DNA from: Atractiella rhizophila
Taxonomy: Eukaryota
DNA length: 64,000 nucleotides
Assembly (NCBI GenBank): GCA_021432655.1
Contig: MU271184.1
Span: 186,001 to 250,000, forward strand
Reading direction: 5' to 3'
Shown here piece after piece: positions 27,026 to 63,072 of the stretch. How positions within the stretch are numbered: position 1 is the first letter of the stretch; each line of letters opens with the position of its first letter. The notes beneath the pieces are model-generated. The model saw nothing but the letters and a program-made list of their open reading frames with translations. It searched no databases and was not told the DNA's origin. A program made the translations under genes and the position numbers.

Positions 27026-27189
27026 TGTTGAACCTGAGGTTCATCAGAAAGACAGGAAGAGGAAAAAGATGAACCTCAGGTAATGCGAACGAGACTAAAC
27101 TACAGTAGCGGACGGAACAGTCAGACGCGGAATGCGTAAGATGAACGGGAAACCAAAAACGAAAAGAGAAAAACAACCAAGCTTCAACA
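27026..27189 (-). repeat. 3' LTR of Copia-1 (164 bp)
   Basis: Identical to the 5' LTR except for 4 extra bases (GAAA). Preceded on the minus strand by the polypurine tract GGAGTGGGAG (27190-27199). Confidence 0.97.
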
Positions 27190-27385
27190 CTCCCACTCCG
27201 TACGCTACAACAAATTGGGAGAAGGTGCAATGGAGAATAGGAATGTGGGATGGGTTGTGATGTAAGGGTGTGTGTGTTCAAATGGATGTGAATATGAAGA
27301 AAAAAGAAATGCTCTGTTACACAACTATTGTGAAGACTGAACGAAGAAGTGAGAGCGCACACGGATGAAAAGAACAGAGTGTCAA

Positions 27386-32438: not shown

Positions 32439-32580
32439 GAAACCTCGCTCAAAGGCGTCCGAGTTGAGTTGGTTTGTTGATTAGCACGTGTCGCGTTTGT
32501 TTGAGAGTGTTTACGACTATTGATGGAAAGGGAGGAAGGCTTGGGGAAAAAGGCGGACGCTTATTCGGTAGGGATCATTT

Positions 32581-32592
32581 GGGCTCATAACC
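32581..32592 (-). promoter_or_regulatory. Primer binding site GGTTATGAGCCC (internal tRNAi-Met fragment type)
   Basis: Directly follows the 5' LTR. Same type as the Ty5 and Drosophila copia PBS, which pair with the anticodon-arm region of initiator tRNA. Confidence 0.85.
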
Positions 32593-32752
32593 TGTTGAAC
32601 CTGAGGTTCATCAGAAAGACAGGAAGAGGAAAAAGATGAACCTCAGGTAATGCGAACGAGACTAAACTACAGTAGCGGACGGAACAGTCAGACGCGGAAT
32701 GCGTAAGATGAACGGCCAAAAACGAAAAGAGAAAAACAACCAAGCTTCAACA
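32593..32752 (-). repeat. 5' LTR of Copia-1 (160 bp)
   Basis: TG...CA ends, adjacent PBS, and TSD AACCG. Confidence 0.97.
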
Positions 32753-40229: not shown

Positions 40230-40418
40230 TGTCGCGGCCGCCGCCTTCTATTTCTCGTGGTCCAAGATGAGATCCAGGGTCTCACTGGATGCGTTTGATT
40301 TGGTTTCCTGCTCAGGAAAAGGGGTTGGAGCCGGCGATGGGGGCAGAGATATTAACTTGTCAACGTTCATTCAACAGCGTTTTTGAAAATTTTTTTCCCC
40401 AACCTGCTCTCGCTACCA

Positions 40419-40592
40419 TGTGGATCTGCTCATCCCTGGTGGTAAGCACCTAGCATGACTATTATCCGAGACTCCTACCTGCTCATCCCTGGTGGTAAGC
40501 ACCTAGGGAGAGCAGGTCATTGACCGTTCGTACGTACACCCGTGTGCGGTGATCGCACCACACTGGATACCTCCAACAAGGACAGATCCACA
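40419..40592 (-). repeat. 5' LTR of Copia-2 (174 bp) with internal 28-bp direct repeat
   Basis: 10-bp inverted ends TGTGGATCTG / CAGATCCACA, adjacent PBS, and CTGCTCATCCCTGGTGGTAAGCACCTAG at 40426-40453 and 40479-40506. Confidence 0.9.
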
Positions 40593-40988
40593 AACCCTAA
40601 GCAAAGGCGGAGGAAAGGACTGGTGCAGTTGTGCAAGTCCTTTCCTCCTTCTTCCATCTGCCCATCCGCCACGCTTTCCTTCCTCATATTCTCATCCACC
40701 TAGCTTTCTCCGACATCCTCTATTCTCTGATCTGTGAGTGTGCTTCAGCAGCACGGCGAAAAGGTGTGCCTCTCTTGTTATGTCTCATTCCTTTCCTCTT
40801 TGCATGAATGTTGTACTAACAATTATCTCCGAGTATTTTCTGTTTCCGCTTGCTTCTCACCTTCCGTCCACCAACTTCCATGGCCACTGCTCTCTTGTGC
40901 CCCGCCCCTCCTCATCGCATCCACTCTGTCCCACCCTTCACGCCTTCTCCCAGCAGAGTACCAGCTCATTGGACCTTATTCAATCGTC

Positions 40989-43900
40989 ATGTCTGCGCTT
41001 TCCTCCAACATCTTCGATCCCCCTGTCGTGAAGGCACTGTGCAAACAGGTGCTAGAGACCCACACTCGACAGAAGGCTGGGAATAAGAAGGGAAACTGGC
41101 TTGTGGACTGGGAAACAATGTGGACAATTCAATCGGTCAATGATACAGTGGAGAAATGGAAGAAAAATAAAAGTATTGTGGGAGAAGAGGGCAACTATTC
41201 TTTGCTGCCCAAGTGTTAGAATATAGGAAAATTGTTAACCGAGTCCTTGACAGAGAGGTATGCTATTCTGTACTTATTTTAAAGTCTCTGGGTTACAAGT
41301 AAAATGTAGATTAACCAAGGAACCATTCCCACTGGCTTTCCCCTCTATGGACCGCTTTTCATTCCTCCCACTGCCGATTATGACCATTTACGGCGAAGAA
41401 ACGTTTCTGACTGTCCGGAAAATTTCTCGTTGAACCTGTTCTTGTCCTAACTCCTGAATACTTTCCTGGCTATAATATGGAGAAATGTCCGGTCAAAGGC
41501 TGCATGGCGAAAGTTGAAAAGCAGGGGCTGGCGCCAACTGGTTATCGCTCAGTTTATGGGCTATCATGCAATTTGAAAGCAATTGGTTGTTATCTCAAAT
41601 TTCAGACTCATGGCAAATGGAGCACAACCTCTCCTAACTTTTGGAGGAACTTTCAGCCATATGAATTAGGTATCGGCGTATTTTTTAAAATGATTTAATA
41701 AACACATGACTAAGTTGCTTGCATAGATGGAATACCTTACTTCCGGGAGTCATCGGCTATCACTCAAGATCTGTTCAACTTTATTACAGAATTACGGCCA
41801 AAGACTGATGTTGGCAAACTGGGAGAAGCGATTCAGCGTGCGTGACTACTGTCTTTGCTTAAAAAAAACCAACTTACACACTCTTTGTGTTTTGCAGAGC
41901 TACATTCGGAGCATGTCCAGCAGATTAAACGGGTTTGGCAACAGTACGCTATTGAAGAACAGATTCGTCACAAATGGCCGTCCGGCTCGTTCAAGCCAAC
42001 CTTGAAGCAGTTCCCAGGTGTTCTATCCAGAGCTGCCGATCCAACAATAAAAGCCGATGCGATTAAGTCCTCTCCATCATCTGGCCTCATCAAGACAATC
42101 TACGAACACTGGATAGAGTGTGAGCCCAGAAAGCAACATGTATTTGAAGACCCTTACCGGTATGTATTTTGGCTTACCTTGGCCCTCTATCCTAATAAAC
42201 CACCAGGTCTTTCGTTAGGCCTTGATGCAACCCTCAAGGTCGCCAAGAAGGCAAACATTTACACTACCATGAAGGAGACTGGTGGTCATCAAAAAGTACA
42301 AGTTACAAATATTTTTGGTGGAGGATTGTTGACGATGGTAAATGAGGACCGAGAACTTGTGGGATACACAAGTTATAAAGTTGCTGTCATCTGTAAATTC
42401 AAGGCCTAATGATAACAATCCAGGAATTTCTTGTTGGAAACTCACCGCTCGAGATGGGTCCACCACTTCAAGAGTTTGCGCAACGTGCACGGCTCCTTGG
42501 AGTCGACTTTGAAGGTAGTGGGCAGGCATGTGTTGACCTCTGCTGTCAACATAGGAACAGTATCCTTCTCTAGGTGCCCGAACTCTGGATTGGTCAGGAT
42601 CGAGCTCATCTTGAAATGCATGTCTTTGAAACAATTCCTCATATCAATCCGGCACGAGCAGATTTCGTTGTGGCATTTCGAGACGCAATCTTGAAGAAGA
42701 AGGCAGACTTGCGCGGTGGGGTTTCTGAGTATTATTCAGTTGAAGAAAGCTTGGAGCGGCTTACGAAAGTTGAAGACAAGTTCAAGAAGAATCCTGATTT
42801 TTGGATCAAGTGCTGTGCCACATTCGAGCTTCAAAAAGGTCACATTGCGAAGGGATGCCTTATTCCAAAGCATCAGCAACTCCCGTTTATGACATCAAAT
42901 AATGAAAACTGGCATGTTGCAGCTGGCGAGCCATTTCGTGGATCGGCTTCTTCTCTTACAACTGTTCTGAGTGTCCTTCCCGATATCTTCTTACGCAAAA
43001 ACCTCCTTGTCAAAATTAAGAACCGCTCTCAGCCAGCTGACTCACCATCATGAGCATTTCGGAAGAAGGTTATTGAGGCTGGTACCCACCACATCTTTCT
43101 TGTGGATTGGAATCTTCGCCTGGAAGACATCTTATACTCTTCAAGCCAGCCTAAACTGCTGGACGTCTTTTCGAAGCACGAGTTTGGATTGGTCAAGCGT
43201 GAAAAGCAGTATGTTTTCTGTATATGCTACTGGGAGTAGTACATTTGTTGCTATTCCATGAGTTTAGATTTACAGGAGTTGACCTAGATCGCTATAAAGC
43301 AAAGCGAAAGGAGCTCCTCCAAACTCTCAAACCAGATGATATCGAACACCCCGAAGTGATTGTTATGGCTGTTATGAATGGAACGGTTGTCATGAATGGT
43401 GAGCTTCCTGTGGACTCTGATGTTGAAATGGAGGTGTTTCCGAAGGCTGTAAGTCTTCTCTTTCCCAGTCTTCTCAACATGAGAATATATTCATATTGAC
43501 ATGTTATAGAAACCTGAGAACACTCCTTTACAACATTCTGCGATCAGTTCATCTTGCTTGCCAGAAAAGCGCATGGCGACCCAATTGGATAGTGAGGATG
43601 ATGCCACTACTACGCTCACCATCTCCTCCAAACGCCCTCATCTAAATCGAGAACTTTTGGAGCCAGATATCAAGCCACCTCCGCTACCTTCTTTTTGGAA
43701 CTTTATAAAATCGAACCAGTCCCCATTTTCCACAAGTATGGATGTGGAAGCACAACCACCACCAGTTCCTCTGCCTACGAATGTCTCCCAATCTCAAACC
43801 TCATAGACCTTTACTTCAGCAACTGGCACTTCGTTTGCAGATTATCAGGAGAAGAATAAAATTCAAATGTACTCTGATGCCTTCTGGAAGCTTGCAGCCT

Positions 43901-44635
43901 GCCGACTCCAGTTCAAAGCTACTTCTTCAATGACAGAGAAGCAGCTGAAGTTGTTTGCTGAGAACTTTAATAACCCCTAGCTTATCTTGAGCCCTGTATA
44001 TTACCATATAGAAAAGGGTGTTCCGACCAACAAAATCATTGGTGACGGTTTGGTAGTCAAAAATAGTTTATTTACAATCGAGAAGGATGTTGCTAGTCAC
44101 ATTCAGAGAGTAGCCAGAGGAGACTGTGAGTTTGAATGCTTTTATTGACAAGAAAGGAATTTACTAATAGTGTTGAGTAGCCATCAAACCATTCTGGAAA
44201 CTACAAACGACACTCCCTCCACCAGTGAAAGTGACATACATGAAGCCAACAAAGAAGGGCAACCTTGGAGCTGTAAAGACTTGTGGTTGATGCAAGAAGC
44301 AAAAGGATGGATATGGTGAGAAGAATACAAACAACCACAAGCGCGATGTCTGTGACGACAACTTTATGCATTGGTCCAAAGTTCCGTACCCACTGCCCAA
44401 GACCAACTTACGCAATGTCCCACTCTGCAAGAATATGTTGGGGAAGTGGAGCACAGACGAGAATGCGGTAAAGAAGTTTTTCACGGATATCAAGGATGGG
44501 AAAGTGCCAGATGTTGATCAATCGGTGGAGATGGTCAACATGCGAGTTTTTATGGCAATGACATGGGTAGAGGAAAAGATGGACTGGGTTTTGACAAAAG
44601 AAAGGTTGCATATTGAAGTGGGGAAGAGAAAGTAG
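40989..44635 (+). pseudogene. Multi-exon putative DDE transposase of an unassigned family (DUF6729-like N-terminus)
   Basis: Exons give GPLFIPP, EKCPVKGC..GYRSVYGL..IGCYLK, LGLDATLKVAKKA, IGQDRAHL (DxxH), HIAKGCL, TSNNENWH and a C-terminal CxxC..H..C. GT-AG introns; some stops and frameshifts. Partly duplicated at 53-56 kb. Confidence 0.6.
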
Positions 44636-44829
44636 TGCTGCACTTAGTGAGTAGTCAGATGCAAATGGATATCTTTTGTGATTTTCAGTCTGGGACAAAT
44701 AATGTACTAGCCTCCACTTTTGAGATTTTTATAAAGATCACGTCAACTATTCTAAAGCAAAGGCAAATTTTGAGCTTTTATTTGATCAATTACAGCTGCA
44801 GTTGCGAGAGGACTGAATGCACTGTTGCG

Positions 44830-45400
44830 GAGTCAAACAATGTAAATATAATGTGAGTTGATGCTCTGCTTTGTTAATATCCCCTCAATGCTAATAATCC
44901 TTATACATCGTGATAGCTAGCTCTCAGGCCGCGCATTCGATGTACTCACGCATGAGATACAATGGATAATGGCGAAGTAATACAGAATCATATGTTTGAC
45001 ATATATAGGGTGTGTATTTTTTCCTTCACTTTTTTTGATGTTTGCTCACTCTTATTACGCATTATACATAGTAATATCTAGCCCCCAAGCCATCGCTCCT
45101 CGCTCTCACGTCTAAAAAACAATGGATAATAGCGAAGCAATGAGGAATTGCGTTTTTTGATGTATATGAAGTGCGTGTTTTGTCCTCCGCTTTTTTTAAT
45201 GTTCACTCGTTCCCAATATACATTATACGTCGTTGAAGCTACATCTTAGGACTCCCATTTGCGCTACTCACGTCTAAAATACGATAGATAATGGCGAAGC
45301 AATGTGGAATTGCATTTTTGATGTATATGAGGTGTGTGTTTTTGTCCTCAGCTTTGTAATGTTCACTCATCGTTATTACATGTTATACAAGGCGACAACA
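44830..45400. repeat. ~161-bp diverged tandem repeat, about 3.5 copies
   Basis: AATGGATAATGGCGAAG-like core at 44961, 45121 and 45283. Confidence 0.8.
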
Positions 45401-45729
45401 GCAACATATACGTTGCGTTCAAGCGACTTAACAGGAAAACACATTGGATATTGATGTCGGAAGGTGTGATCACATTTCAAGTTTCGACATACCCATATCT
45501 TTATTTATATATTTTTTTTGCTTCAGAGACAGACACATTCCTTTTCATAGACACTGGATCAGTCTAAATAATGTCCATGATGAAGCATTAATCATTACTA
45601 CGTTTTTGCATTCCATAATATTCGATGGCGACCACTTTTTGTGTTTGCAGCCCGATGCGGTGCAAATCTCCCCGAAATTGAGCGCAAAACCACCCTTGGG
45701 GCGACCAGTTTGCCAACAAAGGGGCTTAG

Positions 45730-48540
45730 TATGAGTCATGCCCACGGACTTTTTGAGGCTTGAGTTATATGGTGACGGTCACCTGGTCCCAACAACATCG
45801 TCTTAGCATGACTCATTGATGATAGTTGATGAAATTTGTTCCAAATTTTCCAGGCTTTTTTTTTTTCTAGTTCAAGTTCCAGAAGCTGTTCAAGTCATAA
45901 GAAAGAGTGTTGTGATGCACAATTTTGCAAGAATATATTAGTCCAATCAAATTGTGAAGGAAGAATATGTTTGTAATAACTATGTCTCTCTAAACATCAT
46001 GTCGAGCTGCCCATGCCTCTGGAACCCTGCAATGGGAAGAGTATTGCTTCATTTGATATTCAGCATTAATAGCACTCTTTTCTTCTTTGTAAGCTTGAAT
46101 CCATCGGTGGCTCCGATGCTCAAACTTCCGTATTGTTGACAACGGCACTGAGTGCATTCCCTCTGGAACTGTCTTCCTCAACCCTTCAAAGGTATAATCA
46201 CAATTTTCTGCTCCCTTGAGTCAGCTAGAAACTGAAAGGAGATGAATGTAGCTAACCCCTGATATATCGTTTCATTGCTCCCTAGAAGAATTCAATGAAC
46301 TTCAGTTCACAGTGAACTTCGGTAAGAAATTGCCCGATGTCCCTTCTGCTCAAGGATCTCCTGTATAAGTGGCTTTTGCTCCTGAAATCAGGCTGAGCAG
46401 CAAGCCATCTCTCTGATGCAACAACAGTAAGCAAAGCATAGAGAAAAATGGATGTAGCCCACCTGCACAACACATGTGATCATCACGATGGTCGGTAACC
46501 TTTTTGCACTTTCCTCGCAGGCTGGGGAGCCAAAGATTTCTCTCCTGGAGGACCACCTTCATTCCCTTTGGTGTTCCATCTTCATATACCATCTGTTAAG
46601 TATGTCTCTTCCCCATCACATCCACCCACCAGCCATTCCTCAGCTTTGCTTGTGCACCACCTGCCGAAAGATCAGTAATTCTTGATATCTGCAGATCCTC
46701 CAGTGAATGAAGCACATACCAGGTCCGACATTCATATGTTTGGTATTAAGAGCATCTTTTGCAATGGCTGCATGCCCAGTTGAGTTATCAAACATTACAA
46801 GAGCCTGGTCTCCTGGATGCAATCGTTCAAAAACAGGAATGAACTTCTTCTCAACCTGTGTATCCGATGGATGCTACTAATCATCAATAAGGACAATCAA
46901 CAGCAAGGAAGACAGACCTGTTCAGCAAGTTTCTCTGCATTCCAGTATCCTTCATGATTCTTCCCATACTCTAACTGCTCATCTGCTTCCTCAAGCCTTC
47001 CTTTCGTGGAGCAGATGAAATCTGACTGGTGCAAACCACGGCCTTGCCCCTTCTTCCGAATTTTGGATTGTCCATCCAGTACCCATGAGAAGTGCTTGCC
47101 GTCATGTGCGTTGCAGGCGGATTCAGCATGAGAGACAAGGACAACTCGGCGTGTATCTGGAGGAATGTCCTTGATGACCTCCTTCATTACATGACCAATC
47201 ATACTGGCATAGTTGTGGGAGGTATCTTTCAAGGGTAGGGATAAAGACGTCCTACCGATACTTGACGACATCTGGTCTTTCATGACCACTGGAAGACATC
47301 AGCTAAGCTGTACACAGAGTAAGAGCTTACTCGAAGTAGAGACCCTTCTTGTAATATATCCACTGAAATCCCTCTTTCCTCAATCATCTCCTGGCCATCC
47401 TCAATGATATCCTTTTTGGCCCTGGCTTGAATCGAATACGAGGAAAGAGCTCCACTTCAAGGTACTCTTTCAATCCTTTCGGTATCTCTTCACGTATTGT
47501 TTGCTTTGCATACTTCTCAAGTACAAGTGGGACCATCGTATTGACGTGGAATCCAGCAAGTTTTGTTGGGGTCCATCGACCACTTTTTGGTTTGGAGCCA
47601 GGTACAAAGAATGGCACGGATTTCTGGGTCATTCAGTAGGGTATATGTTTTTATATGTCTCTCTGCATACATCACATCAGTCTTTATCAACTGTCAAGAA
47701 GACAAACTGACCTCTGTTTGACACTGGCAGCTCACCTGTCTCCTCAAAATGAGAAGCCCATAAACGAATACATCGTGCACTGTGTAAGTGAGTCCAATTT
47801 GATGCGACGCTGCCGCAAGCTGCGATGCCTCCAGCTTCCACCTTGTACCCAGCTTTAAAAGATTATAATATGTTTCCAGTGCCCGTACCCTCTGTCCTTG
47901 AAGGTGTGTCACGAATGTATTCTCCTGCAGAAGTTGCTCAATCTGAGCGGCCTTCGCCACATAATCATTGAGCTTCTCCCTGTTTTGCTGAGCACTCTCT
48001 TTGTTCGTGAGGCGTATCCGCTTCAGTGCGGGTGATACAACAGGGGACACTTCTTCGTCTGATCTCTTTGGAGGTGTGACAGGACGTGAAGTTGCCAGTG
48101 AGTATGATGTTGGAGTCTGAGAAAATGGAAAGGGTTGTGAGGAAGAGTTTGGCATGGAGGGTATCGTGGAAGAGTATAGTGGAGGTGTGATGGAGTTGAC
48201 AGGAGAGGGGGCTAGTGAGATGTAAGGAGAGAGGTCTTCTTCTTCTTCATCCTCGTCATCAGTCAGCACGTTGATTACATTGTCATGTGTTGTGTAAAGT
48301 GAGGATAGCTGTGACAAAGGTGGCTCTCGAAGAGGTTTGGACAGGTTATCAATTCGCTCACAGCCACTAAAAGCGGGAGTTAACACAGAAGACAGATGTT
48401 GTAAAGACTTACCGTTGCCTTGCATCATTGTACTTGTTCCTACGCCACACTGAAGTCCGTGCTTTTGACGTTGCTCCATTACCATATCCTTGCGTCCTTG
48501 ACTTGCCCTGCCACTTCTCTCCTTCAGCCCAAGCATTCAC
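45730..48540 (-). pseudogene. IS630/Tc1/mariner-superfamily transposase pseudogene (fungal long-spacer type)
   Basis: Exons give VSHAESACNAHDG (first catalytic D changed), KKGQGRGLHQSDF, EGYWN, MFDNSTGH..DALN, GTPKGMKVVLQER, QPDF and HCELKFIEFF. ATGAGTCATG-rich terminal region near 45730. Boundaries approximate. Confidence 0.75.
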
Positions 48541-48749
48541 ATCTAGTGCCCAGCTCATGAGGTCATCGTAGACTGATCCCAAGAGGTCATCCTTAGCTTG
48601 CAGCAGCAGGGCTCATCGTTTCCTAATGTCTGGCGCCTCCTCCTCCTCACTGTCTATCTCAATCTCCCATCATCAGTCTCTTCCTCTTCCTCCTCCTTAC
48701 TATCCGACTGGCCTGAACCGCTAACATCGTTTAGTAGGGATCTGGAGGC

Positions 48750-50170
48750 CAGGGTGTGGTGGATTGGGAAATATAGTAGTATAAAACTGTATCAAACTAC
48801 CTGCCACTTTTGAGCAGTCTAATTCACAGGTATCAGACTCGCATACCCGATAGTTCAGCCCCTCCAGGGGCTTAAACAACTTGTGCCAAAATACCAGTAT
48901 TATACCGTATTTTATACGGTTTTTAGTAAACATGTGTTGGCAAGTGCTACAGCCCCATGAACACCCTATTTAGCTTTTGCTTTCATCAAGAACTGCAGGA
49001 AGAATTAGAATTGATCATTTGATAACACACAACAGAGCCATAGGTACATGTTCTGCAACAAATTAGCAGGAGTGGTGCGAAGTTTCTTTCTTCAGTATCT
49101 GTGTTTCGAAATTTCAACAAAGAACAGCTCAAATCAGTTGATTGCAATCTTGTGAGTTTAGCGCACACCTAAAAGAGAAACATTTGCATCTGTTCTTGAA
49201 GAGTCCAGCCTGCTTTGTTGACCATTTTTGCAGTTTTTTGTTGAGCCCTGTCCTTCCAATGCTTTTTGGGGATCCTCCTGCTTCATGAAAGCAATAAGTG
49301 CTGGGTTGTCAAGATTGATTATGCTTGCTACTTCCCATGCCTCATTTGTTGCTATGGATCCTCGGATGACACTGTCTTCATCTGTCGGAAGGCACTGGTG
49401 TTCAAGTCGCTCAATGATGTCTAAATCTCCTTCGTCAGTGTCTAGAAGGTCCTTCACCTGCAATTGTGGCGCCACCGTCTTCCTTTCTGGCTTGTCATCT
49501 TCTTCCTTTGCTTTTCTTTCTCCTTTTCCTTCCTGCACGTAGCTCTCACAGCACATCACCATGTTGACCAGTGTTGAGGAATCCAAATTTGCACGATATT
49601 TATTTGCCATCCAAGTCATGATAGATATCGTTCGTTCATCTCGCACAGATGTTGGGAGGACTGAAAAGAGCTTGATCACGATCTTCGCTACACCAATCTA
49701 GTGGGTTATCCTGTTGCAGACAAAAGCTTCTCCCAAACAAACTGTCTTGTGTCATCCACCTTCACACTGTCATGTTGAAAATTTGCACTGTTTCTCCGTT
49801 TTCATTTTCGCTCATGATCTCCTCTTCTGCTGTATGAAGGAGGTGGAGTTCATGTCCAATCTGCCTCTTCAGAGATGGGCTCTCCATCTTAAGAACATTG
49901 CTTCTTCCCCAGAAAGGATGGAGCATGAAGGCAGCAAGGTAGACATCTGTAGGAGATGTATAAATGGATCGACAGGATGTGTTGCGTGCAGCTATAATCT
50001 GATTCCAAAGCCTATTGACGATTTCTCTGATTTTCACTTCAATCTCTTTTAAAACATCTTCTGGCGCCACCTTTTCAAATACCGTGTGGAGATGGGCAAT
50101 AATCGCACTCCAATGGAGGAAAACATCGGCAAGTGTAACACTTGTGGCCTGAAGCTCTTTGATTGTGCAC
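48750..50170 (-). mobile_element. hAT transposon 3' remnant
   Basis: CAGGGT-type terminus at 48750. ORFs give VYLAAFMLHP (49762-50070) and KLFSVLPTSVRDERTISIMTW..RANL (49158-49679), the hAT dimerisation region. Confidence 0.7.
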
Positions 50171-50492
50171 TAGGGATGCTTACTCTTCGACCGCCCCGTC
50201 TTACACCCAATTCTTTCATTACCCCTCACTCTCGTTGTTATTGTACAACGTAATACATCAGTAAAACCTCAAATCCTATGGATATAATAGGACACTGCCA
50301 TAGGGTAGGGTTGGCCTATGTAAACTATGAGCGGTGCTAAACAAATCTCTAGTCTGAAAGCCCAGGACCAGATCATCGTCCCGTCCGTCGAAGCCTGAGC
50401 CAGCCACAAACGGGACGATAACCATCCATAAGCAGCACTAGGATCCAAAAATCCGTACGTACGATCGCAGGAAAGAAAATCCAAAGATCACG

Positions 50493-50853
50493 TGTTCTGT
50501 GATGGCATGACTGGAACACTTACATGTCCTACTTTCTGGTAGCATCCAACGTTTCAACGTTTCCTTACTCGTCTGCTCGTTTCCATCCTCGTCTGCTCGC
50601 TTCCTTACTTTGGTGTGTGCTCAAGTTTTCACTTTGAATTACACCTTCTCATTATTCACCACCTTTCTCTCTCTGATAAAAGTGAATTGCCTTGTGAGTG
50701 CAAGACCACATTCTTATTCATTTGGTCTCGCACCTTGCAGGTAATTTGTTTCACCTTACATACTTAGAAACACATTCTCTTTCAATTGATCTCACACCTC
50801 ATAGCCTTGCACGTCGCCGCTCTAAACTCATCATTCTGGTGAACCGGTCAACA
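50493..50853 (+). repeat. Degenerate LTR-like sequence ending GGTCAACA; 5' border uncertain
   Basis: Pyrimidine-rich with a TATA-like GATAAAA, a hairpin, a 34-bp diverged direct repeat flanking a GT donor, and a TCAACA end. No TSD found. Confidence 0.45.
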
Positions 50854-50859
50854 TTTACT

Positions 50860-51600
50860 TGTTGAAATAGTAAGTATGGCTAGCTAGGTTTTGGCAAGCG
50901 AGTGCCTGAGGCTCAAAACATACTGATATATGGGAGTATTACTTCTCATTCAGAGTGTCACTGTTTCTGTTGTTATTATATAATGTTGGAAGTGAATACT
51001 GCTTCAAACAGCTACTTGCTTAATACTTTGGAGTCAAATAGTCTAGAACTTTCAAGAAAAGTAATGTAGTAAGATTTAAGGAAAAAGCAAGAACTGGTAG
51101 CCAAAGGAGAACATTCTAGAATTGCCACTCAAGTAAGATGGCAGGATGAATCATGAACGACAACACACCTCCTCAGACTACCCTCAATCCCATCTCTTTG
51201 CAAAACTTCTCCACCTTTTGTCTTGTTAATGCCTTCATGAAGATGTCTACAAAGTTTTCCTGTGTGGGATGTATGTGACTGAAAAGCTCACATCTCAACT
51301 TGATTATGGATGAAATGATGAATGATATCAACATGTCTCATGTGTCAGTGGAATTCTGGGTTGTAAGCGAGAGCAATGGCTCCTTGATTGTCACAGAATA
51401 GTGTGGTGGTCTCGTTTTTTTTGGATTCCTAGGCCCGTAAAGAGCTTTCAAAGCCAAATAACTTTGCAAGCAGCATATAAGAGGGCGACATGTTCAGCTG
51501 CCATCGTCGACATTGCAGTTGTGGTCTGTTTCTTTGCAGACCAGGATATTGCACCTCCTGAAAGTAAATAAGCATATCCAGATAGCCTTCCTTCCATTCA
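50860..51600 (-). mobile_element. Old Copia 3' remnant (RNase H, PPT, 3' LTR 50860-51165)
   Basis: YAYLLSGGAISWSAKKQTTTAMSTMAAEHVAL. Purine tract TGAGGAGGTG abuts TGTTG at 51165; opposite end TTTCAACA at 50860. Confidence 0.7.
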
Positions 51601-53255
51601 ATTCACTTGAATTTCCATGTTAATACATATATGTGGAAGCGGACGAGAAACCATAATCCGGAACTGTCTCATAACGGGGCATGATACTTATACTTGCAGA
51701 AGGCAGAAACAAACGTGACCATAGCTTGCTGATGACCCTGATCTTGGTGGAAACTATATACCCTGGTTGAAGGTTGTATGCTTAAGATCTGAGCATTCTG
51801 AACTCTGTGCATATTGTAAACCTGGCTGCATTAGTAGTAGAGGGAACCCAAATTCATGTTTTGCCAATGTAGTGTCAGGATGTTCATGTTTGTAACCTAG
51901 TACACATCGTAACAGTGGTCAAACTTCCTCCTGATTTCCGCATCACGAAGGATTTGGACAAGATAGCCTGCAGTCTGATCTTAGTCATCACTTTCCACAA
52001 TTTCATCATGATATGTTACCTTCATTTTGCATAACTTGAGCACGATCGTTTGAGAGGGAGAGAAATCAAACTCTTCGTGGGAGAAGTTTTCACGATACAA
52101 ACCCTTCCAAAGAACTATATCCTTACCCATCACACTCCCCACTCCATGAGCATGACTGTCTTAGCGGTGAGAGCCAGTTAGTGATTGTTTTCACCTGTTG
52201 TCGATTCATCTAACATAGTTGCCAGCAATGGTAAAGTGTATAATATTCAGCCAAGCTCTGCTGACTCCACCGTCAGTAGCAGGTTCCAGAGTGCCAGTCT
52301 CACCTTAAGGCCATGGATCAATTTTGCTGGAACCATCATGAACTGATCCAATGGAGTCGCACCACTTCCAGCCCAGCTGCCCAGTCATTTCTGGCGAGAT
52401 TTGAGGGGGATAATATGTTGTTATGGTAGCCTTTCGTCATTTATGCAAATGGTGTTGGTTAGAGACGAAAGGGAGTTGTTGTACAGCTAGTGGAGTGAAA
52501 AGGAACATCAATGGCGGCTCACTGCAGCTTGCCTCAAGGTATGTAAAGCCAATGTGGGGGACTTGAACTCACAAGGGCCTTCTTTCAGAAGCGCACTACA
52601 GAGCTTATTGGCCATTTCACTCCCTTGTTATGACTTGCTTCAATTTTACCAATCTTTCTTTCATCTTTTGTATTTCAAGTTCACTGCCAATCAACTTTGA
52701 ACATATAGATGGAAATCTCACCCTCATCATTTAATATTTGAGTTCCCACACTGCAGGACGATAGACCAGGTGAGCAGTATCCTTTTTCCATCAAAGCAAA
52801 GAGCTTTGTACTGATTACAGCTGAACAGTGCTTATCACAGTTCAATCTGCTACTCCAACAATGGTCTCCATCTTCAACTGAGTATGTTGGTTTCTATTTT
52901 GCATGATTTTTTTGCAGCTCAACAAGTCATAGAATGCTCAACCTGACCTTGCTGCCCGTCTCTCTCTACATTTATTTGCTTGAAGTGCCCATATTGCTGC
53001 CATTAAAACTGTCCACTACCCCTGCACCTTGGGCAAGTGTCAGGAGGGCTTTGGTCGTAAACTGGTCATAGAAATGTAGCCTAAGTGCAGTCTGACCATG
53101 TTTTTGACTCTCCTGTAAATGAGCATGAGTAACTACCATGGATGTTGCGATGACAAGATGCGTTAACGAGCCAAAGTTTGCTTCAGCCACAAATCAGGTC
53201 ACATACTTCATGATAACATTAAACGTGACCACAATCACAAACTAAGTATAGAGCT

Positions 53256-53592
53256 TGCAGAGTAACAGCTTATTGGAACGTAATCAATCATCGTGTCTGC
53301 ACTCTCCTCCAACATCTTCAATCCCTCTGTTGTAAAGGCACTGTGCAAACAGGTGCTAGAGACCTATACTTGGAAGAAGGCTGGGAATAAGAAGGGAAAC
53401 TGGCTTGTGGACTGGGAAACAATGTGGACAAGTCAATCGGTCAATGATACAGTGGAGAAATGGAAGAAATAAAGTATACGGGAGAAGAGGGGCAACTATT
53501 CTTTGCTGCCCAAGTTTTAGAATATAGAAAATTGTTAACCGAGCCTTGACAGAGGGGTATGCTATTCTGTACTGATTTTAAAGTCTCCGGGT
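53256..53592 (+). repeat. Diverged copy of ~40953-41294 (transposase 5' part)
   Basis: Shared runs such as GAAGGCTGGGAATAAGAAGGGAAACTGGCTTGTGGACTGGGAAACAATGTGGACAA. Confidence 0.92.
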
Positions 53593-53899
53593 TTTATGGT
53601 GAGACTTAAGCAACCTGGGGTGACGGTCTCAAAGAAGCTTTGGCTAGGGGCTTCAAAGTTCAAGTAGCTGTTGCTCCAGTGAGGACTTCTGGGATGACAT
53701 CACAAGAGTACAGAGAGGAGAAGCAACGGTCATCTAAATGCCAGCTCATGACTGAGGAGGAAAGCTGGGGCGTTCAATAAGTGCTACTTCGCCATTGAGT
53801 ATTTGCACATGTTTTGCCCTTTTGCTTTTCACTTTTCTCTGTCTGAACAAACCGTAAACAGCTTCCAAGTATGCCCAAAGACCATCAATTCTATCCGGA

Positions 53900-55130
53900 A
53901 ATTAGCTAGGTTGTCTGAACCATGTAGAAACAACTTGCGCTTTAATATCAGCCTCATCCAAGGTAAAGTTGACAGCTGTGGCTAGCTCACACATGCTTTC
54001 AACCTTTGTCGGCCCAAAGATTGGAGCTGTAACTCCAGGCTTGTACAACAACTACGTGATTGCAATTTACCTTTCCATCAGCCAAAATTCCATCTGGGTC
54101 GATGACGCCATACCCACGCCATGGACACCCTGTTCTTCCTTGTCAACTGTTCTACCGTGCTCACAATCTTCTTATCACTTTCCCCAGTAGCATCTTTCAC
54201 AATAAGGTTGAGGAACTTATCCGACTTTCCTCTTTCCATGGTTTTGTTTTGAGCCCAAGGTCGCATGAGGAGACCTCGACCTACGTCCCAGAGCGCCATG
54301 TGCATCGTTTCATCTCACAGAGGGATGGAGGTGAGGCTGTGATCAACATACCCAGTGGACTTCAAGGAGTATAGCCAACTCCGAACTCTTGAGAGTGGGT
54401 ATCATCTCCCTTTCTTCCTCAAGATAGTTAGCTGAATAATGGTTCTGCACGCTGATGAAAGGGGTAAGGTTTTTCAATTAGCATAGTTCTGTATGGCATG
54501 GAACTCATAGGCATGATAGGAAGACTGATGGATTCATACTCAGACATGTAGATCGTGAAAAGCGAGCTGGGTGAAAGTCATAAAATGCACCATCCCAATG
54601 TATCACAACCATCCTTTCTGGACCACATCATGCAAAACTTTGCATTATTTCTTTAATTGGCTTTTCATAGTCAAACCTATGGCCTTTAACACAAAAAGTC
54701 TTTAGTTCTTCCAAGATGGTGTCACGGATAGATGGACATTGCAGCAAGTCGATGTATTCCAGCTTCAAAAGCTTCAAGGATGCTTGCACACTGGCAAAAT
54801 ATGCTTTCGGCTCGAACCATGTTGATTATACCCAAAAATTGGTTCATGAAATAGAGAAAGCAAGAGAACGAAAGGATGTGTACTTGACATGGCCCGAATC
54901 GTCGGGGTTTCCAGGACAACTTGCCATAATTCTTCCCCAGCTCGTCATGAACTGTAGAGTATAACTGTTCCTCAATCAAAAATGGTTTGGAAAACGGAAG
55001 AGTGAGAAGAACCTTCGTCATGACCACGATGGTCTCCCTCGGTATCTTCAACTGCTCAATCATGTTCCCGGAATAACTTCCGAGAGACCAGAAGAATAGA
55101 CTGATCCCATGACCGTTGAGCTGCATCCCC
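53900..55130 (-). pseudogene. Aldo-keto reductase (aryl-alcohol dehydrogenase-like) pseudogene
   Basis: LKIPRETIVVMTKV, NQHGSSRKHI/FASVQASLKLLKLEYIDLLQC, LHDVVQKGWL*YIGM, AYEFHAIQNYA, LTPFISVQNHYS..EEREMIPTLK, GLLMRPW, KPGVTAPIFGPTK. Introns retained; stops and frameshifts present. Confidence 0.88.
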
Positions 55131-55169
55131 GAATTAAAAATCAAACAAACCATTGGTGGTACTAGAAAG

Positions 55170-56196
55170 TGAAGTCACCACTATCTTCTATTTGGAACTT
55201 CATAAAATGGAACCAGTCTCCATCTTCTACAAATATTGATGTGGAAGTACAACCACCGCCAGTTCCTCTGCCCACATATGTCTCCCAATCTCGTACGTCA
55301 CATACCTTTACTTCAGCAACAGGCACTTCGTTTGCAGGTTATCAGGAGAAGAGTATAATTCAAATGTACTCTGATGCCTTCTGGAAGTTTGCAACCTGCT
55401 AACTCCAGTTCAAAGCTACTTCTTCAATGACAGAGAAGCAGCTGAAGTTGTTTGCTGAGAACTTTAATAACCCCTAGCTTATCTTGAGCCCTGCATATTA
55501 CCATATAGAAAAGGGTGTTCTGAACAACAAAATCATTCGTGATGGTTTGGTGCTCAAAAACAGTTTATTGGCAATCGAGAAGTAGATTGCTAGTCACATT
55601 CCCAGAGTAGCCAGAGGAGACTGTGAGTTTGAATGCTTTCATTGACAAGAAAAGGAATTTACTAACAATGTGTTGAGCAGCAATCAAACCATTCTGGAAA
55701 CTACAAACGACACTCCCTCTGCGAGTGAAAGTGACATACACAAAGCCAACAAAGAAGGGCAAACTTGGAGCTGTAAAGACTTGTGGTTGATGCAAGAAGC
55801 AAAAGGATGGCTATGGTGAGAAGAATACAAACAATTACAAGCGGGACCTCTGTGACGACAACTTTCCGCATTGGTCCAAGGTTCTGTACCCACTGCCCAA
55901 GACCAACTTACACAATGTCCCACTCTGCATGAATATGTTGGGGAAGTGGAGCATAGACGAGATTGTGGTAAAGAAGTTTTTCACGTATATCAAGGATGGC
56001 AAAGTGCCAGATGTCGATCGACCAGTAGAGATATCAACATGCGAGTTTTTTTGGCAATGACATGGGTAGAGGAAAAGATGGACTGGGTTTTGACAAAACA
56101 AAGGTTGCATACTGAAGTGGGGAAGAGAAAGTAGTGCTGCACTTAGTGAGTAGTCAGATACAAATGGCTATCTTTTGTGATTTCAGTCTGGGACAT
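55170..56196 (+). repeat. Diverged copy of ~43672-44697 (transposase 3' part)
   Basis: About 1 kb collinear match, e.g. CTTCTTCAATGACAGAGAAGCAGCTGAAGTTGTTTGCTGAGAACTTTAATAACCCCTAG in both. Both end TTCAGTCTGGGACA. Confidence 0.95.
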
Positions 56197-58761
56197 ATGA
56201 AGCTAAGTAATCGATCACATATTCTGTCTTCTTCCTTCCATGGTAACTGTAGCTAGACGAAATCAAACCCATACTTCAAGCAACTCATTACACAGAGTCA
56301 AAGTGGAACCGATCGAACAATCGAAGGAGTTTAAACCACGGATGCTCACATATTACTACTACAACAACGGAGAACGGGGTGGCGAATATGTACGAAGAGA
56401 TTAAGAAGATGAATGTAAGATATCAAATGGAATGAAATGGGTAGTTATGGTTACGAGAAGTCGTTGAGGCGTGTGCCGGCGCCAGTTACATTGAGATGCG
56501 ATGAATCTGAGGCTTGTGAGGTGAGATGAGTTGGTAGAGAGCCAATCGAAGAATGAGGGAAGGAGGGAGGGAGGTCTTTATGAAGCGATGGAGAGATGGT
56601 GAGATTACTGGATGGGCCCATTGCACTTCGCGGTGTGACGATTGAAGTTTCCGATGGTATAATACCTCTTCCCACCTATCACACCACCGAGTCAGCAGTT
56701 CATTTTCATGAGAAAAGGAGGCAAGGAGGGGAAGATGACGCACAGAAAGGACAATAATACTCATTTTCTTGGGGCTTCGAGAGGCTAACGAAGAATTTCT
56801 TTCTGCAACCCGTGCGACCGCAGTCAGCAATGCAATGAAAAGCCACGAAAGAAAGGTAATAGGGATAACCACTCACATAGCTCCCAATCCAAAAGACGTC
56901 ATTACTGTTACTGTGGTCTGCTTGCTTGTTGCTAAACGCTTCCAGGACTGAGAGAACTCGAAATTCGAAGCTTCGTTGACTGGACTGACTTCTGACTTCT
57001 TCGGGACTGCAGCCTTTTAAAACGAACCCGTGCCGAACCCGACAGTTTGGATATTCCCGTCTTGTCGCAACCAACCCAGCGATCCCGGCCGTTTGGATCT
57101 CTCTTTTTTGTCAGACCTGCAGGTGGTGACGTGCTGGACGATGTGATGGTTGGGCGGTTGGGCACAAAGACGGATCGCTTAGGATCGCTGCCCCGAAGTT
57201 GGAATACGAACCAGAGATCGGGATCGGATGCCCATTCTCCTTCCTCCAGAGATGACCCAAGCTGACCTCACCATTCTTCCCAAGCCTACTTTTGGGCTTC
57301 CTGGTCTTGCACCAGCGTCAGAGGCAAGTGTAGCGACGTTTTCATTCTCTGTTGGATGGGTAGGGACTTCCGATCTGTCAGCTACTCTTTTCTCTTGTGT
57401 CAATCCTTACTTCGTGCCATCACGTCCTACTTCCACCACAACGATGTCCGTATAACCTCTGGAAGGCTGTCTCAATTCCTTATTGGAGGGAGCCTGATCC
57501 TGTGGCAAAGAAAGGCTCGCCTCCAACTGCTGGACGTTTCTGGGTCTGCGGCTTGAGTCCAATGTCACTGCTGAGAAGGTGCAAAAAGGTCATCGAATGT
57601 GCTCGCCGAATGTGATGAAAGCGGACTTAGACGCAATTTTGCAATGTCGAGGAGGCGAACACGCTGTTGAATGCAATCGAAGGCTTGAAATGAGTGCAGC
57701 GTCGTCAACTCGACTGTCGAGGGACCTCGATATGTTCTAAACGACGCTTTCCTGGAGATCCGTAATAAATGTCAACTTTTGAGCCTTTTGATCAGAAGAA
57801 GCTTCAGATCGCTTTGAATCCTGAATCATCTGACAAGTTGCATTGCATGACCTCGTCGACAACCTCTCAATACAAAGCCAGGAATATAACATGCAATATC
57901 CTTGTCCAAAGACTCTTCTGAAGAGTAAGCAAAAGTGACCCTGAATCTGAATCTGAATCGAATGCAGGAGCTGTGGGGACCAGTCGAGTAATTGTGGGAG
58001 GTTGTTATCTCCTGCCCAGTATATCTGTTAATGCGTAGTCAAGATCGTGCGAAAAGCTGCGAAGCACGCGAAGTGTTGGTTGTTACAAATACATTTATGT
58101 TGAACCCAGATTGAGATGCTGAATTTTTGGGGGTTTCACTCGAGCTCACGCTTCGTGGTCGTCATTGCTCCACAACCGTCGTCACCTGCCAACATCTTAC
58201 GCAACATCTCCTCAACTGTGGAGCCTCGCTGCCAGATAGCGGGCTCGTCCTGCTAGCCTACACCTTCAACTTGAGCGGGTTGTGCCTGCAACTGGACTTT
58301 GAGGTGATCAACACCAGTCACTCGATTCTGGGTTCCCCATCTCAAACGAATACGCTGTAGCGCTACCTGAAGGCTTTTCCGATGCGCAACAGTATTCTCT
58401 TTTTCTCTTCTATTTCGTTCATAGTAACCTGACGGCGCTGAGGCCCTCACACGACCTCACACCGTGTTCCCGACGAGTATCACAATGTTCAAGATAGACC
58501 CCGGGATAAACTTGAAGGTAATCGACAGCTCAGCTGGACGACGGGAGTTTCGTCCGAAGAAATCGCCGCGAGTTCAAATGAAGGAGACAAATGCCCTGAA
58601 TTCGATGTTTCTCCCGAAAAGCAAAGCTTTCACGCTCAACTAGCAAATCGCTTCCAATACCAGCCTGAGCCTCTCTCGGATTGACTTGTTTGATCTAGGT
58701 ACATCCAACCCCAACCACCCATAGGCATCATTTGCCGATCGAAAAAGCTTCCGCTTAAGCT

Positions 58762-59026
58762 CACAGAAACATTTAAAGAAGATTTAGGTCGTGTATAATC
58801 TGGTCGATCCTTAGAATATTTAATATCTGATAGTAAACAATCACGAAAAAATAAAAAAATCGTAATTTTTACTAGGTAACATAGGATACTTCTCGAAAAT
58901 AGGTAAAATAATATTCTTTAAATGAAATTTATTTCGAATACGACAATAGGCAATATTATCTTTTTTTAAATTAATAGTTCCAACACCTAGTAATGATTTA
59001 ATAAAATAAAGTAATTGAATATCACG
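58762..59026 (-). pseudogene. LAGLIDADG homing endonuclease fragment
   Basis: RDIQLLYFIKSLLGVGTI..RIRNKFHLKNIILPIFEKYPML.SKNYDF is typical of fungal mitochondrial LAGLIDADG ORFs. Confidence 0.85.
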
Positions 59027-59488
59027 TCCCTCCATACCACCAGCCACTGGATCTACATTTAGATTAGGTTATAATATATCTATATAAAACTGCTCAAGTT
59101 GTGTAACTTGAGTAGGAGTTGAACCTACAGGAAGGATATGTAATGTTAATTCAAGATTGTTATACCCATATTTTTTAAAATATCGATATACACGACGTTT
59201 TCCACTACCAATAATAGATGGCATGAAGTAGGATGACACTCGATAGTAGAGATTAGTTGCACCTCCTACATATATAGCACCTGTAACTCTATCAGTAAAA
59301 ACATATACACCAGACATACCTTTACCATGTTGAATAATAACCTTACGATTATAATATGGTTTATCAATAATAATAGTATTATGTGGATGAGGTGGTTGAT
59401 CACCATAAATGTTATTACCTATATAAGGGTAAACATTTTGGCTTTTACAATTGAGATATTTAGAGATTTCTTTAAATAACATTAAGTT
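59027..59488 (-). pseudogene. Intron-encoded GIY-YIG endonuclease fragment, in frame with the cox1 exon
   Basis: [29 protein letters not shown]...[14 protein letters not shown]; one stop at 59069. Confidence 0.88.
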
Positions 59489-59630
59489 AACCATAAAAAA
59501 AAATATTAAAATAGCATGAGCTGTAATAATTGCATTAAATAATTGATGGTTTCCTATTAAAATTTGTGAACCTGGTGATGATAATTCTATTCTAATTAAA
59601 ATAGAAAATGCTAAACCCAATACCCCGAAG
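59489..59630 (-). pseudogene. cox1: Mitochondrial cytochrome c oxidase subunit 1 exon fragment
   Basis: [46 protein letters not shown]. Exon ends in T, as expected before a group I intron. Confidence 0.93.
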
Positions 59631-62600
59631 AAAGACGCCAAAAATCGAATAAGCGCGACCAAGGTCTCGTTTGAAGAAAAGTCTGGGTGGAAAACCTGAC
59701 GGCTCGTAAGCAGCCTCCGTCCAACATGATGATCAACTGTAGAGCCCATTTTGGCGAGTGAAGAAGTGTAGAAGCCCCATGGACAAAAGTAAGATCCAAA
59801 GTTTGCGATCGGCAATTAAAGTTGGAGAAGGAACAAATGCTCTCGTTGCAAGAGGTGCGAAGAAAATGAAAAGGATTCATGAACTTCTACACCCAAAATA
59901 TCCAGTTCCTATGACTTTTGCACCACGCCTATAAGTCTAAGCGACATTCTGTTTGCCCCATGGTTTCAACTAGTTTCAATGGACAAGTTCATTGTCATCA
60001 CTAGTCAGTGCCTTCTGCAGCTTTGTTTCATGAATTGGAAGGACCCGGTACCTCTAATTAAAGCACAAAGCTGACAATAGAGCAATAAGTGTACACATCA
60101 AACTGAATGGAAGCCAAGGCACACTTTGAGAATAGTACATCTGAGAACATGTACCTCACCCACCAAATACTTATCCTCCACCCTTCTACCATTGTCATGA
60201 ACTGTTCTAAACTTCTGCATGACATACTCTGAAAAGTTTGTTGTCTGCTTCAGCTTCTTCCCATCTCCATCAAGCTTATACTTGTCAGGACGGACGTAAA
60301 GATGTGTATGAACGTGAGGGTCAGGTCGCGTAACGCTCTTAGAAGAATAGATGCACGGAGAGGTCACACTTGTGAAAATGCTGCAAATTCATGAGACATC
60401 TCTGTTCCTCTTTATGAAGAGAGAAGACGTACCGAGATTCAGGGAAGCAATGAGTACGGCCTTCAAGTCATCGAATTACTTCTATCTCTTGCAATCGAAT
60501 AGCGGACTTACTGGAACAGCACATTGGATGGAGCGTTTGATCAGTGTGAAGATGAGGTTGCGAGTTCTGGAATCGTGTAAGCTTAGCGATCGTTTGGAGA
60601 TATCAATAAGTAATCCTACTGAGGCAAAATAGCCTTTTTTGTTTGTGTGAGGAGAAAGTAAGCCGTGCACGCGGCGATGAGGATGTCGCCTGCTAATACA
60701 CCGCTAGATTCAAGCGTTTGAGCCTACCTGTTCGATTTGTGAAAGGGACGGTATCGCACCTGTAGTGATCAGCGAACCAGCGTGCGAGAGTCTGCGGCCC
60801 TTACCCTTAGACACTGCACTGCCTAAAGGTTTCACTCACCGCAATGATGATTGAAATATACGAGAAAATGAGGACCGCGACGATGATCGCTATAACCCAC
60901 CACTTCCTACAGATTATGTATAATGGATATAAGAAGTAAGCTTGACTGTTTTACCATTCACAGTTGTCAGTCCTCCTCCTTGTTTGTTCGTAGCCCAGGC
61001 GTACACATAGAGACCGCAAGAGGCGTCCTTGCCGTGTATTAGCTGTCAGTAAAAAGAACGATGGATGGGAGACGTACTGTTAAAGTAAAGGCACTCTGCC
61101 ACCACTCTGTGTACGATAGGAAAATGGGGCCTTGCAGATCCTGTAAGCAGTTTTGGGACAATCGTTCTATCGTTGAAAGGACTCACCGTAAAAAAAGTCA
61201 CAAATTGGATCCAGCAGGTTACACTGACGAAAAGTGTCAAGCGGAGGAAGCTGGGAAGCTTTGAAAATGCTCACAAAGAATGAATGCTCTCCAGGAGCTG
61301 AGTGATGAGTAGTCCTGCGACAACGAGTTTCAGCCAACGACGATCGTCCTTGTAGTGCTGCTAATCTTAGCAGGTTCCATGAACTGTGTGCTAACCAGTG
61401 TGAAGAAGAATCGGCTTACAAGTGTGAAATTGTGCAAAGAAGGATGCCATAAAGAATGAACTCGAGTGAAAGACCTATAAACCAAGGGCCTTCCAACGAG
61501 GAGCATCAAGTCATGTTCGCCTGATCTCCCAGGCGGAGAGAAACTCACCAAGCAGTCGCCTCGACTGCTGTGAGATGTAATGGTAATGGTCAACCCGCTC
61601 ACATGCGGCAATACCTTCCTATTCTGGAAGCGGCTCCTGCCTAACTTGGAAGTGACATTGACCACTGTATACCTCACCACTCCCCCGTCTCTCTACACCT
61701 CTCCTGTCGGCTCCAAGCGCGTACAATCGATCGGAAGCAGAAGGGAAGATAACCGCATGGTATCTTAGCCTTATCCAGAAGCTGGAAGTGTCAGGATTTT
61801 GGCGCGTTGAGCGTCATTCATTGCCACCTGTTCTGTGGCTGTTTTTCTTGAACCTTCTGGACTTCCATGCTTACCAATGTTTGCCACCTTCTGTAAAAGT
61901 GTAAAAGCACTAGATTCTTTATCGTAATACTATGAACTTGTAATTTCATCAGGAAGGCAAGATCCGTCGATTCCCTGGCCGTTTGATTCCCTTCAGCTTC
62001 CTCTTCGTTCCATGCTTTCAGACTATTCTATATTTCTATCTACTTATGTATTACGGGTTTTCCCGCGATGTTGTTTGATCTTTTATCCGATTCATTGGCC
62101 TATAAAAGAGGCCTCACTTGTTAATATAAATTCATCTTATTCCTCATCATCTTACTTCGCACTCACAGCAGAAAGCGCAGTAAGAATCGAGGTAAGTTCC
62201 ACGGGCCGTAGAAGCGCCCCTGTAAGATCCATCGTCTTTATTCTGAGACCAAATAGCTTGGTAAGCGGCCCTACACTTCATAGCAAAAGCTGGTTCCTGT
62301 CTCTCCATTTCGTTCAAGCTCTCATTTATTGATTGAGCCTCTTAATTCTCGCTCTAGTCGAGCTAAAGGAACTCGCTTTTGCAGTAGAGTCTCACAACTG
62401 CTCGTACTCCTCATGCGTCAATGACAGCGTCATAAGAGGTGAATGGAAAGGCATCTTGCTCAACAGCACGAAATCAGCAGCAATGGAGAAGAGACATCCA
62501 AAGACAACGGGGCAGGAGAGATTGTGATTAGAAAGATCGTTATGATTATAAAGCTCGTTGCTATTTCTTCTGGTCACCACTTGGATCACTGAGGGACCCC

Positions 62601-62838
62601 AAGCGGGGGGTGCGGTAGCAAGTCGGGCAAGTATTCAAGTATAAAATTAGTTAGAATATATTATTATTATTAGTTTATTCTTAATGGTGCGTGGAGCCTC
62701 TCCATTTGGCGGTTGTTTTGAATGGCCATCGTTCCCACATCTTCGCGGGCGTTAATTTTGGTGTGGTTGTTCCGTCCAGCGGAGAGTACCCGAGGCGTGC
62801 CCACTTTCAACAGACCCCACATTTCGCGAAGTCGTCTC

Positions 62839-63072
62839 TGTTGAACCTGAGGTTCATCAGAAAGACAGGAAGAGGAAAAGATGAGTATTGCATGTGAGCG
62901 TGTGATAGGATGCTTACCTGAGGTTCATCAGAAAGACAGGAAGAGGAAAAGATGAACCTCAGGTAATGCGAACGAGACTAAACTACAGTAGCGGACGGAA
63001 CAGTCAGACGCGGAATGCGTAAGATGAACGGGAAACCAAAAACGAAAAGAGAAAAACAACCAAGCTTCAACA
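62839..63072 (-). mobile_element. Solo LTR of the Copia-1 family, long (234 bp) form
   Basis: Same sequence as the Copia-1 LTRs plus 71 bp. 5-bp TSD GTCTC at 62834-62838 and 63073-63077. Confidence 0.97.

Follow-up and report, generated by a model that had tools for sequence, protein, structure and literature searches.

Two families of Ty1/copia retrotransposons in a 64-kb stretch of Atractiella rhizophila contig MU271184.1 (the window, whose first letter is position 1) carry an unusual block near the end of the unique 5' (U5) region of their long terminal repeats (LTRs). The block measures 71 nt in one family and 53 nt in the other, begins with GT, ends with AG and is laid over a perfect direct repeat. 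We tentatively favour the reading that it is a short, inefficiently spliced spliceosomal intron lying wholly inside U5, and we place this reading, which is drawn from DNA sequence, a little short of an even chance. Indirect support comes from a sister element whose LTRs lack the block, from donor letters kept among variants that contain it and from a positioned donor motif in copia families of metagenomic origin, all of which suggest an intron-like character. The window holds two Ty1/copia elements, A and B, both on the minus strand, and the first-pass annotation of this DNA had thus chosen the sense strand correctly. It had also treated the interval 40419-63072 as one system built on three LTRs; that interval proves to be made up of two unrelated elements and other repeats.

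Repeat-block layout at the U5 end

The three LTR or LTR-like sequences of the first-pass annotation (LTR1 to LTR3), with the blocks and repeats that they contain, are the following:

62839..63072, minus strand: LTR3, a solo LTR of the element A family in the long form, 234 bp, with TG..CA ends and a target duplication
62847..62917, minus strand: intron-like block of LTR3, 71 nt, starting with GTAAGC and ending with CAG, absent from the element A LTRs
62845-62884 and 62916-62955, minus strand: perfect direct repeat of LTR3, 40 nt, period 71
40419..40592, minus strand: LTR1, the 5' LTR (174 bp) of the truncated copia element B, with TG..CA ends and the primer-binding site (PBS) alongside
40426..40478, minus strand: intron-like block of LTR1, 53 nt, starting with GTAGGA and ending with CAG
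40426-40453 and 40479-40506, minus strand: perfect direct repeat of LTR1, 28 nt, period 53
50696..50853, plus strand: LTR2, previously called "LTR-like" and unsupported as an LTR, with an imperfect 29-nt repeat and GTAATT..TAG

LTR3 is flanked on both sides by GTCTC (62834-62838 and 63073-63077), a 5-bp target duplication, and in a self-comparison of the window its sequence recurs as both LTRs of the full-length element A. LTR1 has TG..CA termini with inverted ends of 10 nt; it has no second copy in the 64-kb window, so its target duplication is unreadable. These two sequences, with their TG..CA ends and copia context, were rightly taken for LTRs, but the third displays no LTR feature. We dropped LTR2 as an LTR: its sequence occurs once in the window, lacks a target duplication and is distant from any retroelement open reading frame (ORF), and no retroelement domain was found near it among 45 ORFs scanned over 33.2-62.3 kb. 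Exact repeats of at least 10 nt are absent from LTR2, the repeat ascribed to it being imperfect (29 nt, 83%, E 0.069). The layout said to unite all three sequences—a repeat ending in AG, then GT, a spacer and the repeat again ending in AG—is common to LTR1 and LTR3 but not to LTR2, and an intron-like block on a repeat at the U5 end is likewise found in these two of the three.

On the sense strand, the 71-nt block reads GTAAGC, a unique spacer of 31 nt, a pyrimidine run of 21 nt, a CTGAT that lies 10 nt ahead of the block end, and finally CAG. The 53-nt block runs from GTAGGA through a 25-nt spacer and GCTTAC to CAG, with weaker signals than its 71-nt counterpart. Both have GT..AG termini, a branch-like motif and a host-typical length, 71 and 53 nt being within the usual intron range of mushroom-forming fungi. 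In both LTRs the repeats stop 6-8 nt short of the LTR end. Only three exact direct repeats of at least 12 nt with a period of 25-130 exist in the 64 kb, and the repeats of LTR3 and LTR1 are the longest two; the window has only two junctions between a 5' LTR and a primer site, both from families with the repeat-block layout. In both families (2/2) it is the sense strand that has the GT..AG phase. Its simulated chance is 0.146 and 0.105 for the two repeats and about 0.015 jointly (the product, before donor positions +3 to +5, AAG and AGG, are counted), although these figures are weakened by the selection of the window from many that were scanned.

The 31-nt and 25-nt spacers are each single: no other copy adjoins the block or occurs at any other place in the window. 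The origin by tandem duplication proposed earlier does not hold in its simple form, since 25-31 nt of spacer are unique and the block is not a plain tandem copy. A derivation of the spacers from the primer transfer RNA (tRNA) or from flanking DNA was also considered and dropped: the spacers come directly after the repeat and not after the LTR end, and they do not resemble the leader.

The counterpart without the block is element A, whose parts are arranged as follows:

27026..32752, minus strand: element A, a full-length Ty1/copia element with paired LTRs, target duplication, PBS, and gag and pol ORFs
27026-27189 and 32593-32752, minus strand: short-form LTRs of element A, 164 and 160 bp, lacking the 71-nt block
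27021-27025 and 32753-32757: target duplication of element A, 5 bp, AACCG on the plus strand (CGGTT on the sense strand)
32581-32592, minus strand: PBS of element A, GGTTATGAGCCC, directly after the 5' LTR
31068-32480, minus strand: gag ORF of element A
27386-31315, minus strand: pol ORF of element A, 1309 amino acids, with protease, integrase and reverse transcriptase (RT) domains

Element A displays the hallmarks of copia elements, a PBS next to the 5' LTR and the order gag-protease-integrase-RT. The 71-nt block is missing, exactly, from both of its LTRs, and the remainder is about 99% identical to LTR3. Contigs of the DNA runs X1 and X2 were compared with the window over 26501-46500, a stretch outside which LTR2 and LTR3 lie. 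Contigs of both runs contain an empty site that joins 27020 to 32753 and retains one of the two target-duplication copies. The insertion of element A, with its open reading frames, is therefore recent and still polymorphic (or heterozygous). A second joint, from 27025 to 33254, suggests another allele that lacks element A and about 500 nt more.

Set against the short LTRs of element A, the X1 and X2 contigs reveal at least three further long-form variants besides that of LTR3, recognized among 12 of 18 matches as contigs in which the end of the repeat leads back to the repeat start. These variants hold 34-38 other letters between the repeat copies, and their spacers differ considerably. All three end in ..GCTT before the repeat on the plus strand, which corresponds to positions +3 to +6 of the sense donor. 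The long forms are several and older. A hairpin arm had been described as part of the common layout, and in LTR3 the hairpin is indeed strong (-36.4 kcal/mol, z -5.8); the stem of the A family has 14 bp in the short form and 18 bp with one bulge in the long form. In LTR1, however, the hairpin is insignificant (z -1.1) and its arm pairs with the PBS.

A positioned donor motif in metagenomic copia families

We scanned metagenomes with a pattern consisting of the last five LTR letters and the primer site GGTTATGAGCCC, which returned at least 122 loci; the same pattern gave 2 loci in viral contigs. Removal of tRNA-gene matches and of loci with <150 nt upstream left 106 junctions in 71 clusters. 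The complement of GGTTATGAGCCC covers the CAT anticodon loop of the tRNA-Met genes matched by this pattern, and we take the primer site of element A to represent Ty5-type priming from the anticodon stem-loop of initiator tRNA-Met. As in element A, GGTTATGAGCCC stands directly after the LTR in all metagenomic loci. Copia identity was established by the gag domain for several of the loci, with three members of one family matching at E 1e-14 to 1e-16 and two others matching weakly. The gag sequences of elements A and B yielded three weak matches to the metagenomic families, none of them to a donor-bearing family.

Within 200 nt on either side of the LTR end, the sense donor motif GGTRAG occurs 8 times in the 71 clusters, and 6 of these occurrences lie at -57 to -48. 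Its antisense occurrences fill 22 cluster-by-20-nt-bin cells, spread over the same range. The longer motif AGGTRAGT is present in the last 100 nt of three clusters in the sense direction and of none in the antisense direction. Under a first-order Markov null, 1.6 families are expected on average, against 6 observed (P 0.0105). Among aligned members the donor motif is invariant (9/9, 6/6 and 5/5), even where the upstream part barely aligns, and a TATA-like box is found further upstream of it. From GT to the final CA of the LTR plus the first G of the PBS there are 48-57 nt, the size of a fungal intron. In L002, L018, L026, L072, L101 and L108, removal of the segment from GGTRAG to CA+G leaves ..AG followed by the rest of the primer site; because ..AG precedes the remaining primer site, spliced RNA of these families would keep the full PBS.

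It is doubtful, in our estimate, that the phenomenon is a general one, with fungal copia elements repeatedly evolving U5 introns in answer to poor intronless expression. Under this broader proposal, the acceptor in a widespread clade would consist of the terminal CA and the first G of the PBS. In the families of the window, the U5 end would instead be duplicated and both RNAs would be copyable, giving rise to heritable long-LTR and short-LTR lineages, and an early transfer could rebuild the intron.

The U5 donor might also be real but served by an acceptor downstream of the PBS, in which case the spliced mRNA would lose the primer site and be uncopyable, and the repeat would be incidental. Pyrimidine-rich AG sites are present 76 nt (element A) and 111 nt (element B) past the LTR end, and in the largest donor-bearing metagenomic family gag is located about 340 nt past the LTR end, which leaves room for an acceptor. 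We nevertheless judge this account improbable: comparable acceptor-like sites are common in these pyrimidine-rich leaders, and LTRs of element A that lack exactly 71 nt would need slippage in addition.

Splicing and its alternatives

If the block is a U5 intron, transcription would start upstream of the donor, and the intron would be bordered on one side by the transcribed part of the LTR and on the other by the final 6-8 nt ahead of the PBS. Part of the transcripts would be spliced; splicing of the 71-nt block should be inefficient, because its donor lies inside the 18-bp stem. Unspliced RNA would then be the template that maintains the long form, as in retroviruses. In spliced RNA, repeat copy 1 would restore the same 40-odd letters before the LTR end, and for this reason the spliced RNA should still be a competent template. 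Its reverse transcription would give rise to elements such as A, in which both LTRs are short. In Cryptococcus, Armillaria and Ganoderma, introns are reported to increase mRNA levels (PMC3744415, PMC4935854, PMC8379801). A gain in expression driven by the intron, in a host group of this kind, would explain why two unrelated families have arrived at the same layout. Regeneration of the intron by strand transfer would be unnecessary in such a model.

An unspliced duplication of U5 is a serious possibility as well, if one clearly below even. The duplication would have arisen as a reverse-transcription error, by a template switch with filler at the hairpin by the primer site, short forms would be produced by RT slippage, and GT..AG would be coincidental, helped by the AGGT within the palindromic hairpin arm. 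The repeats are perfect over 40 and 28 nt, as slippage would have it, and the block boundaries can slide anywhere within the repeat, so that slippage accounts just as well for the short form of element A. An event during reverse transcription would be expected to leave both LTRs short, and in element A they are. At its end the repeat has an AGGT that is part of the stem, the first letters of the spacer extend that stem, and the donor in the 53-nt block is weak. On the other hand, two unrelated families must each have gained a long repeat in the same place and in the sense phase (about 0.015 jointly), whereas a repeat of >16 nt near the LTR end occurs in 0 of the 71 other clusters. The origin of the spacer is left unexplained by this account, and the positioned metagenomic donor unaccounted for.

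Vector studies of the 1990s documented deletion between direct repeats during retroviral reverse transcription. Such deletion predicts exactly the change from long to short form seen here, identical in both progeny LTRs, but is silent on GT..AG, needs no transcription signals and leaves the origin of the repeat-spacer-repeat arrangement unexplained. The lost block is bounded by direct repeats and the two progeny LTRs are alike, as in such deletions, which fits splicing equally. Splicing and repeat slippage yield the same short LTR, both with matching progeny LTRs.

Several observations speak against splicing. Loss of a block between perfect direct repeats requires none, and the whole account, RNA ends included, is deduced from genomic letters. 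In the 53-nt block the donor, GTAGGA, is a weak one, the branch-like motif is followed by an AG ahead of the one that ends the block, and a second GT..AG phase is possible. Upstream of the block, a TATA box is missing from the LTR1 and LTR3 families alike. In the 71-nt block, the donor GGUAAGC pairs with the upstream GCAUUACC and lengthens the stem, and the conservation of the donor letters may be structural because these same letters pair in the stem. An equally good CAG/GTAATG is present on the antisense strand of LTR3, since the hairpin arms are palindromic. In the metagenomic families no repeat accompanies the donor: within the last 220 nt of the LTR, repeats of at least 12 nt are found in 5 of the 71 clusters, none is >16 nt and none is phased. 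In the one metagenomic family that the search pattern would still recognize after splicing, no member lacks the block (0/9). The six donor families share their LTR architecture and may amount to one clade or roughly four lineages. Long/short pairs at the U5 end are absent from the 15 multi-member clusters. Records of run X4, which is possibly RNA and contains 0.07 of the sampled words, say nothing on expression: 13 small records of depth 2-4 fall on 26501-46500, some of them with adaptor ends and none across a block.

The first-pass annotation had gone further and proposed that the 5' copy is spliced to permit expression, that the 3' end of the RNA remains unspliced and that strong-stop DNA placed on repeat copy 2 rebuilds the intron. 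Long and short forms do coexist in one genome, and the repeat copies are identical though the spacers vary, as repeated copying between the copies would give. We consider this full model highly unlikely all the same. In the established model of reverse transcription, full-length minus-strand strong-stop DNA copies the 5' form into both LTRs; with a spliced 5' form, both LTRs would be short, and only a premature transfer would rebuild the intron. After the block the LTR runs on for 6-8 nt, and the poly(A) site would have to lie in these or beyond the element. Regeneration via strand transfer thus runs against ordinary strand-transfer logic, as it needs both a premature jump and a poly(A) site in the last 6-8 nt. 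The model has an engineered counterpart in split-intron retroviral vectors, where reverse transcription moves the donor from the 3' LTR into the 5' LTR (Ismail et al. 2000, as related in PMC3182074). In the vectors as in the model, a working intron is assembled by reverse transcription that copies a splice site between LTRs. The vectors differ, however, in being engineered and in containing no repeat; their donor is placed between the unique 3' (U3) and repeat (R) regions of the 3' LTR, and their acceptor follows the packaging signal.

The U5 splicing proposed here resembles the leader splicing of retroviruses: unspliced RNA would be the genome, spliced RNA the message, and the donor would lie in LTR-derived sequence. 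The major retroviral splice donor is presumably located in or near the LTR, and inside R in human T-cell leukaemia virus type 1 (HTLV-1) and foamy viruses. In retroviruses the acceptor lies far downstream in the body, whereas here the donor, branch and acceptor would all be in U5, before the PBS, and it is for this reason that the spliced RNA would keep the primer site. Subgenomic gag RNAs are spliced in Ty1/copia elements, including Drosophila copia, plant BARE and Arabidopsis copia elements. The proposal for elements A and B is similar in that copia-type elements would use the host spliceosome, but the copia gag introns remove pol coding sequence, lie outside the LTR and have no flanking repeats, unlike the present blocks. 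The Rogers model derives new introns from tandem duplication of an AGGT-containing segment. As in that model, a repeat ending in AG/GT supplies both splice sites and removal of the block restores the original sequence; the Rogers intron, however, is an entire copy of the flanking exon, whereas 25-31 nt of each block are unique. Ty5-type priming is shared by element A, while element B has a TGG-type site for priming by a tRNA 3' end, yet displays the same layout.

Searches of the full-text literature outside subscription journals, and passages of the review PMC7175516, yielded no account of a retrotransposon LTR with an intron inside it. With an RNA stage in their life cycle, retroelements are expected to lose introns. 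If the U5 reading is true, an LTR-internal intron with visible loss in sister copies would show how splicing-dependent expression can be reconciled with replication, and would offer a natural, datable system for intron gain and loss. It would also call for caution with LTR annotation and dating tools, which treat LTR length variants as plain indels. If the block is unspliced, it would be an ordinary LTR length variant and a clean natural example of RT slippage between direct repeats in a fungal element.

Element B and the remainder of the window

Besides LTR1, the following features belong to element B or adjoin it:

35436..40418, minus strand: body of element B, with PBS and gag, protease, integrase and RT; the 3' LTR is missing
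40403-40418, minus strand: PBS of element B, TGGTAGCGAGAGCAGG, TGG-type, directly after LTR1
36312-40247, minus strand: ORF of element B encoding gag, protease, integrase and the start of RT, which continues in 35853-36311
35034-35474, minus strand: Plavaka transposase fragment (E 1e-11), exactly at the place expected for the element B 3' LTR

No 3' LTR of element B exists in the window. Plavaka transposons, of which a transposase fragment occupies its expected place, are a family found in mushroom-forming basidiomycetes. Run X1 includes a contig with a joint from 40578 to 35436, which connects 35436 to the start of the LTR and indicates that intact copies of the B family exist elsewhere. No 53-nt skip, as expected of a short LTR1, is found among 15 of the 53 joints listed in the contigs of the DNA runs.

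Right beside LTR1 begins a repeat of 3-4 kb, present in two copies that are 91-97% alike (40953-44684 and 53257-56183). It contains no Pfam domain, and the summed depth of DNA-run contigs over it reaches up to about 10 times that of the surroundings, pointing to a high-copy element of unknown kind. At the opposite end of the window, Pfam domains are found in 0 of the 24 ORFs of at least 110 amino acids in 1-27 kb, and positions 1-27000 may be gene-poor or consist of decayed repeats. Just outside LTR3, an ORF at 63130-63702 (plus strand) has a weak match to an RT zinc-binding domain (E 2.7e-4, below the curated cut-off). Another ORF, at 59069-59815 (minus strand), lies where G+C is 39% and matches cytochrome oxidase subunit 1 and a GIY-YIG endonuclease; judged by these matches, a fragment of mitochondrial DNA (cox1 with its intron endonuclease) seems to have entered the nuclear sequence here.

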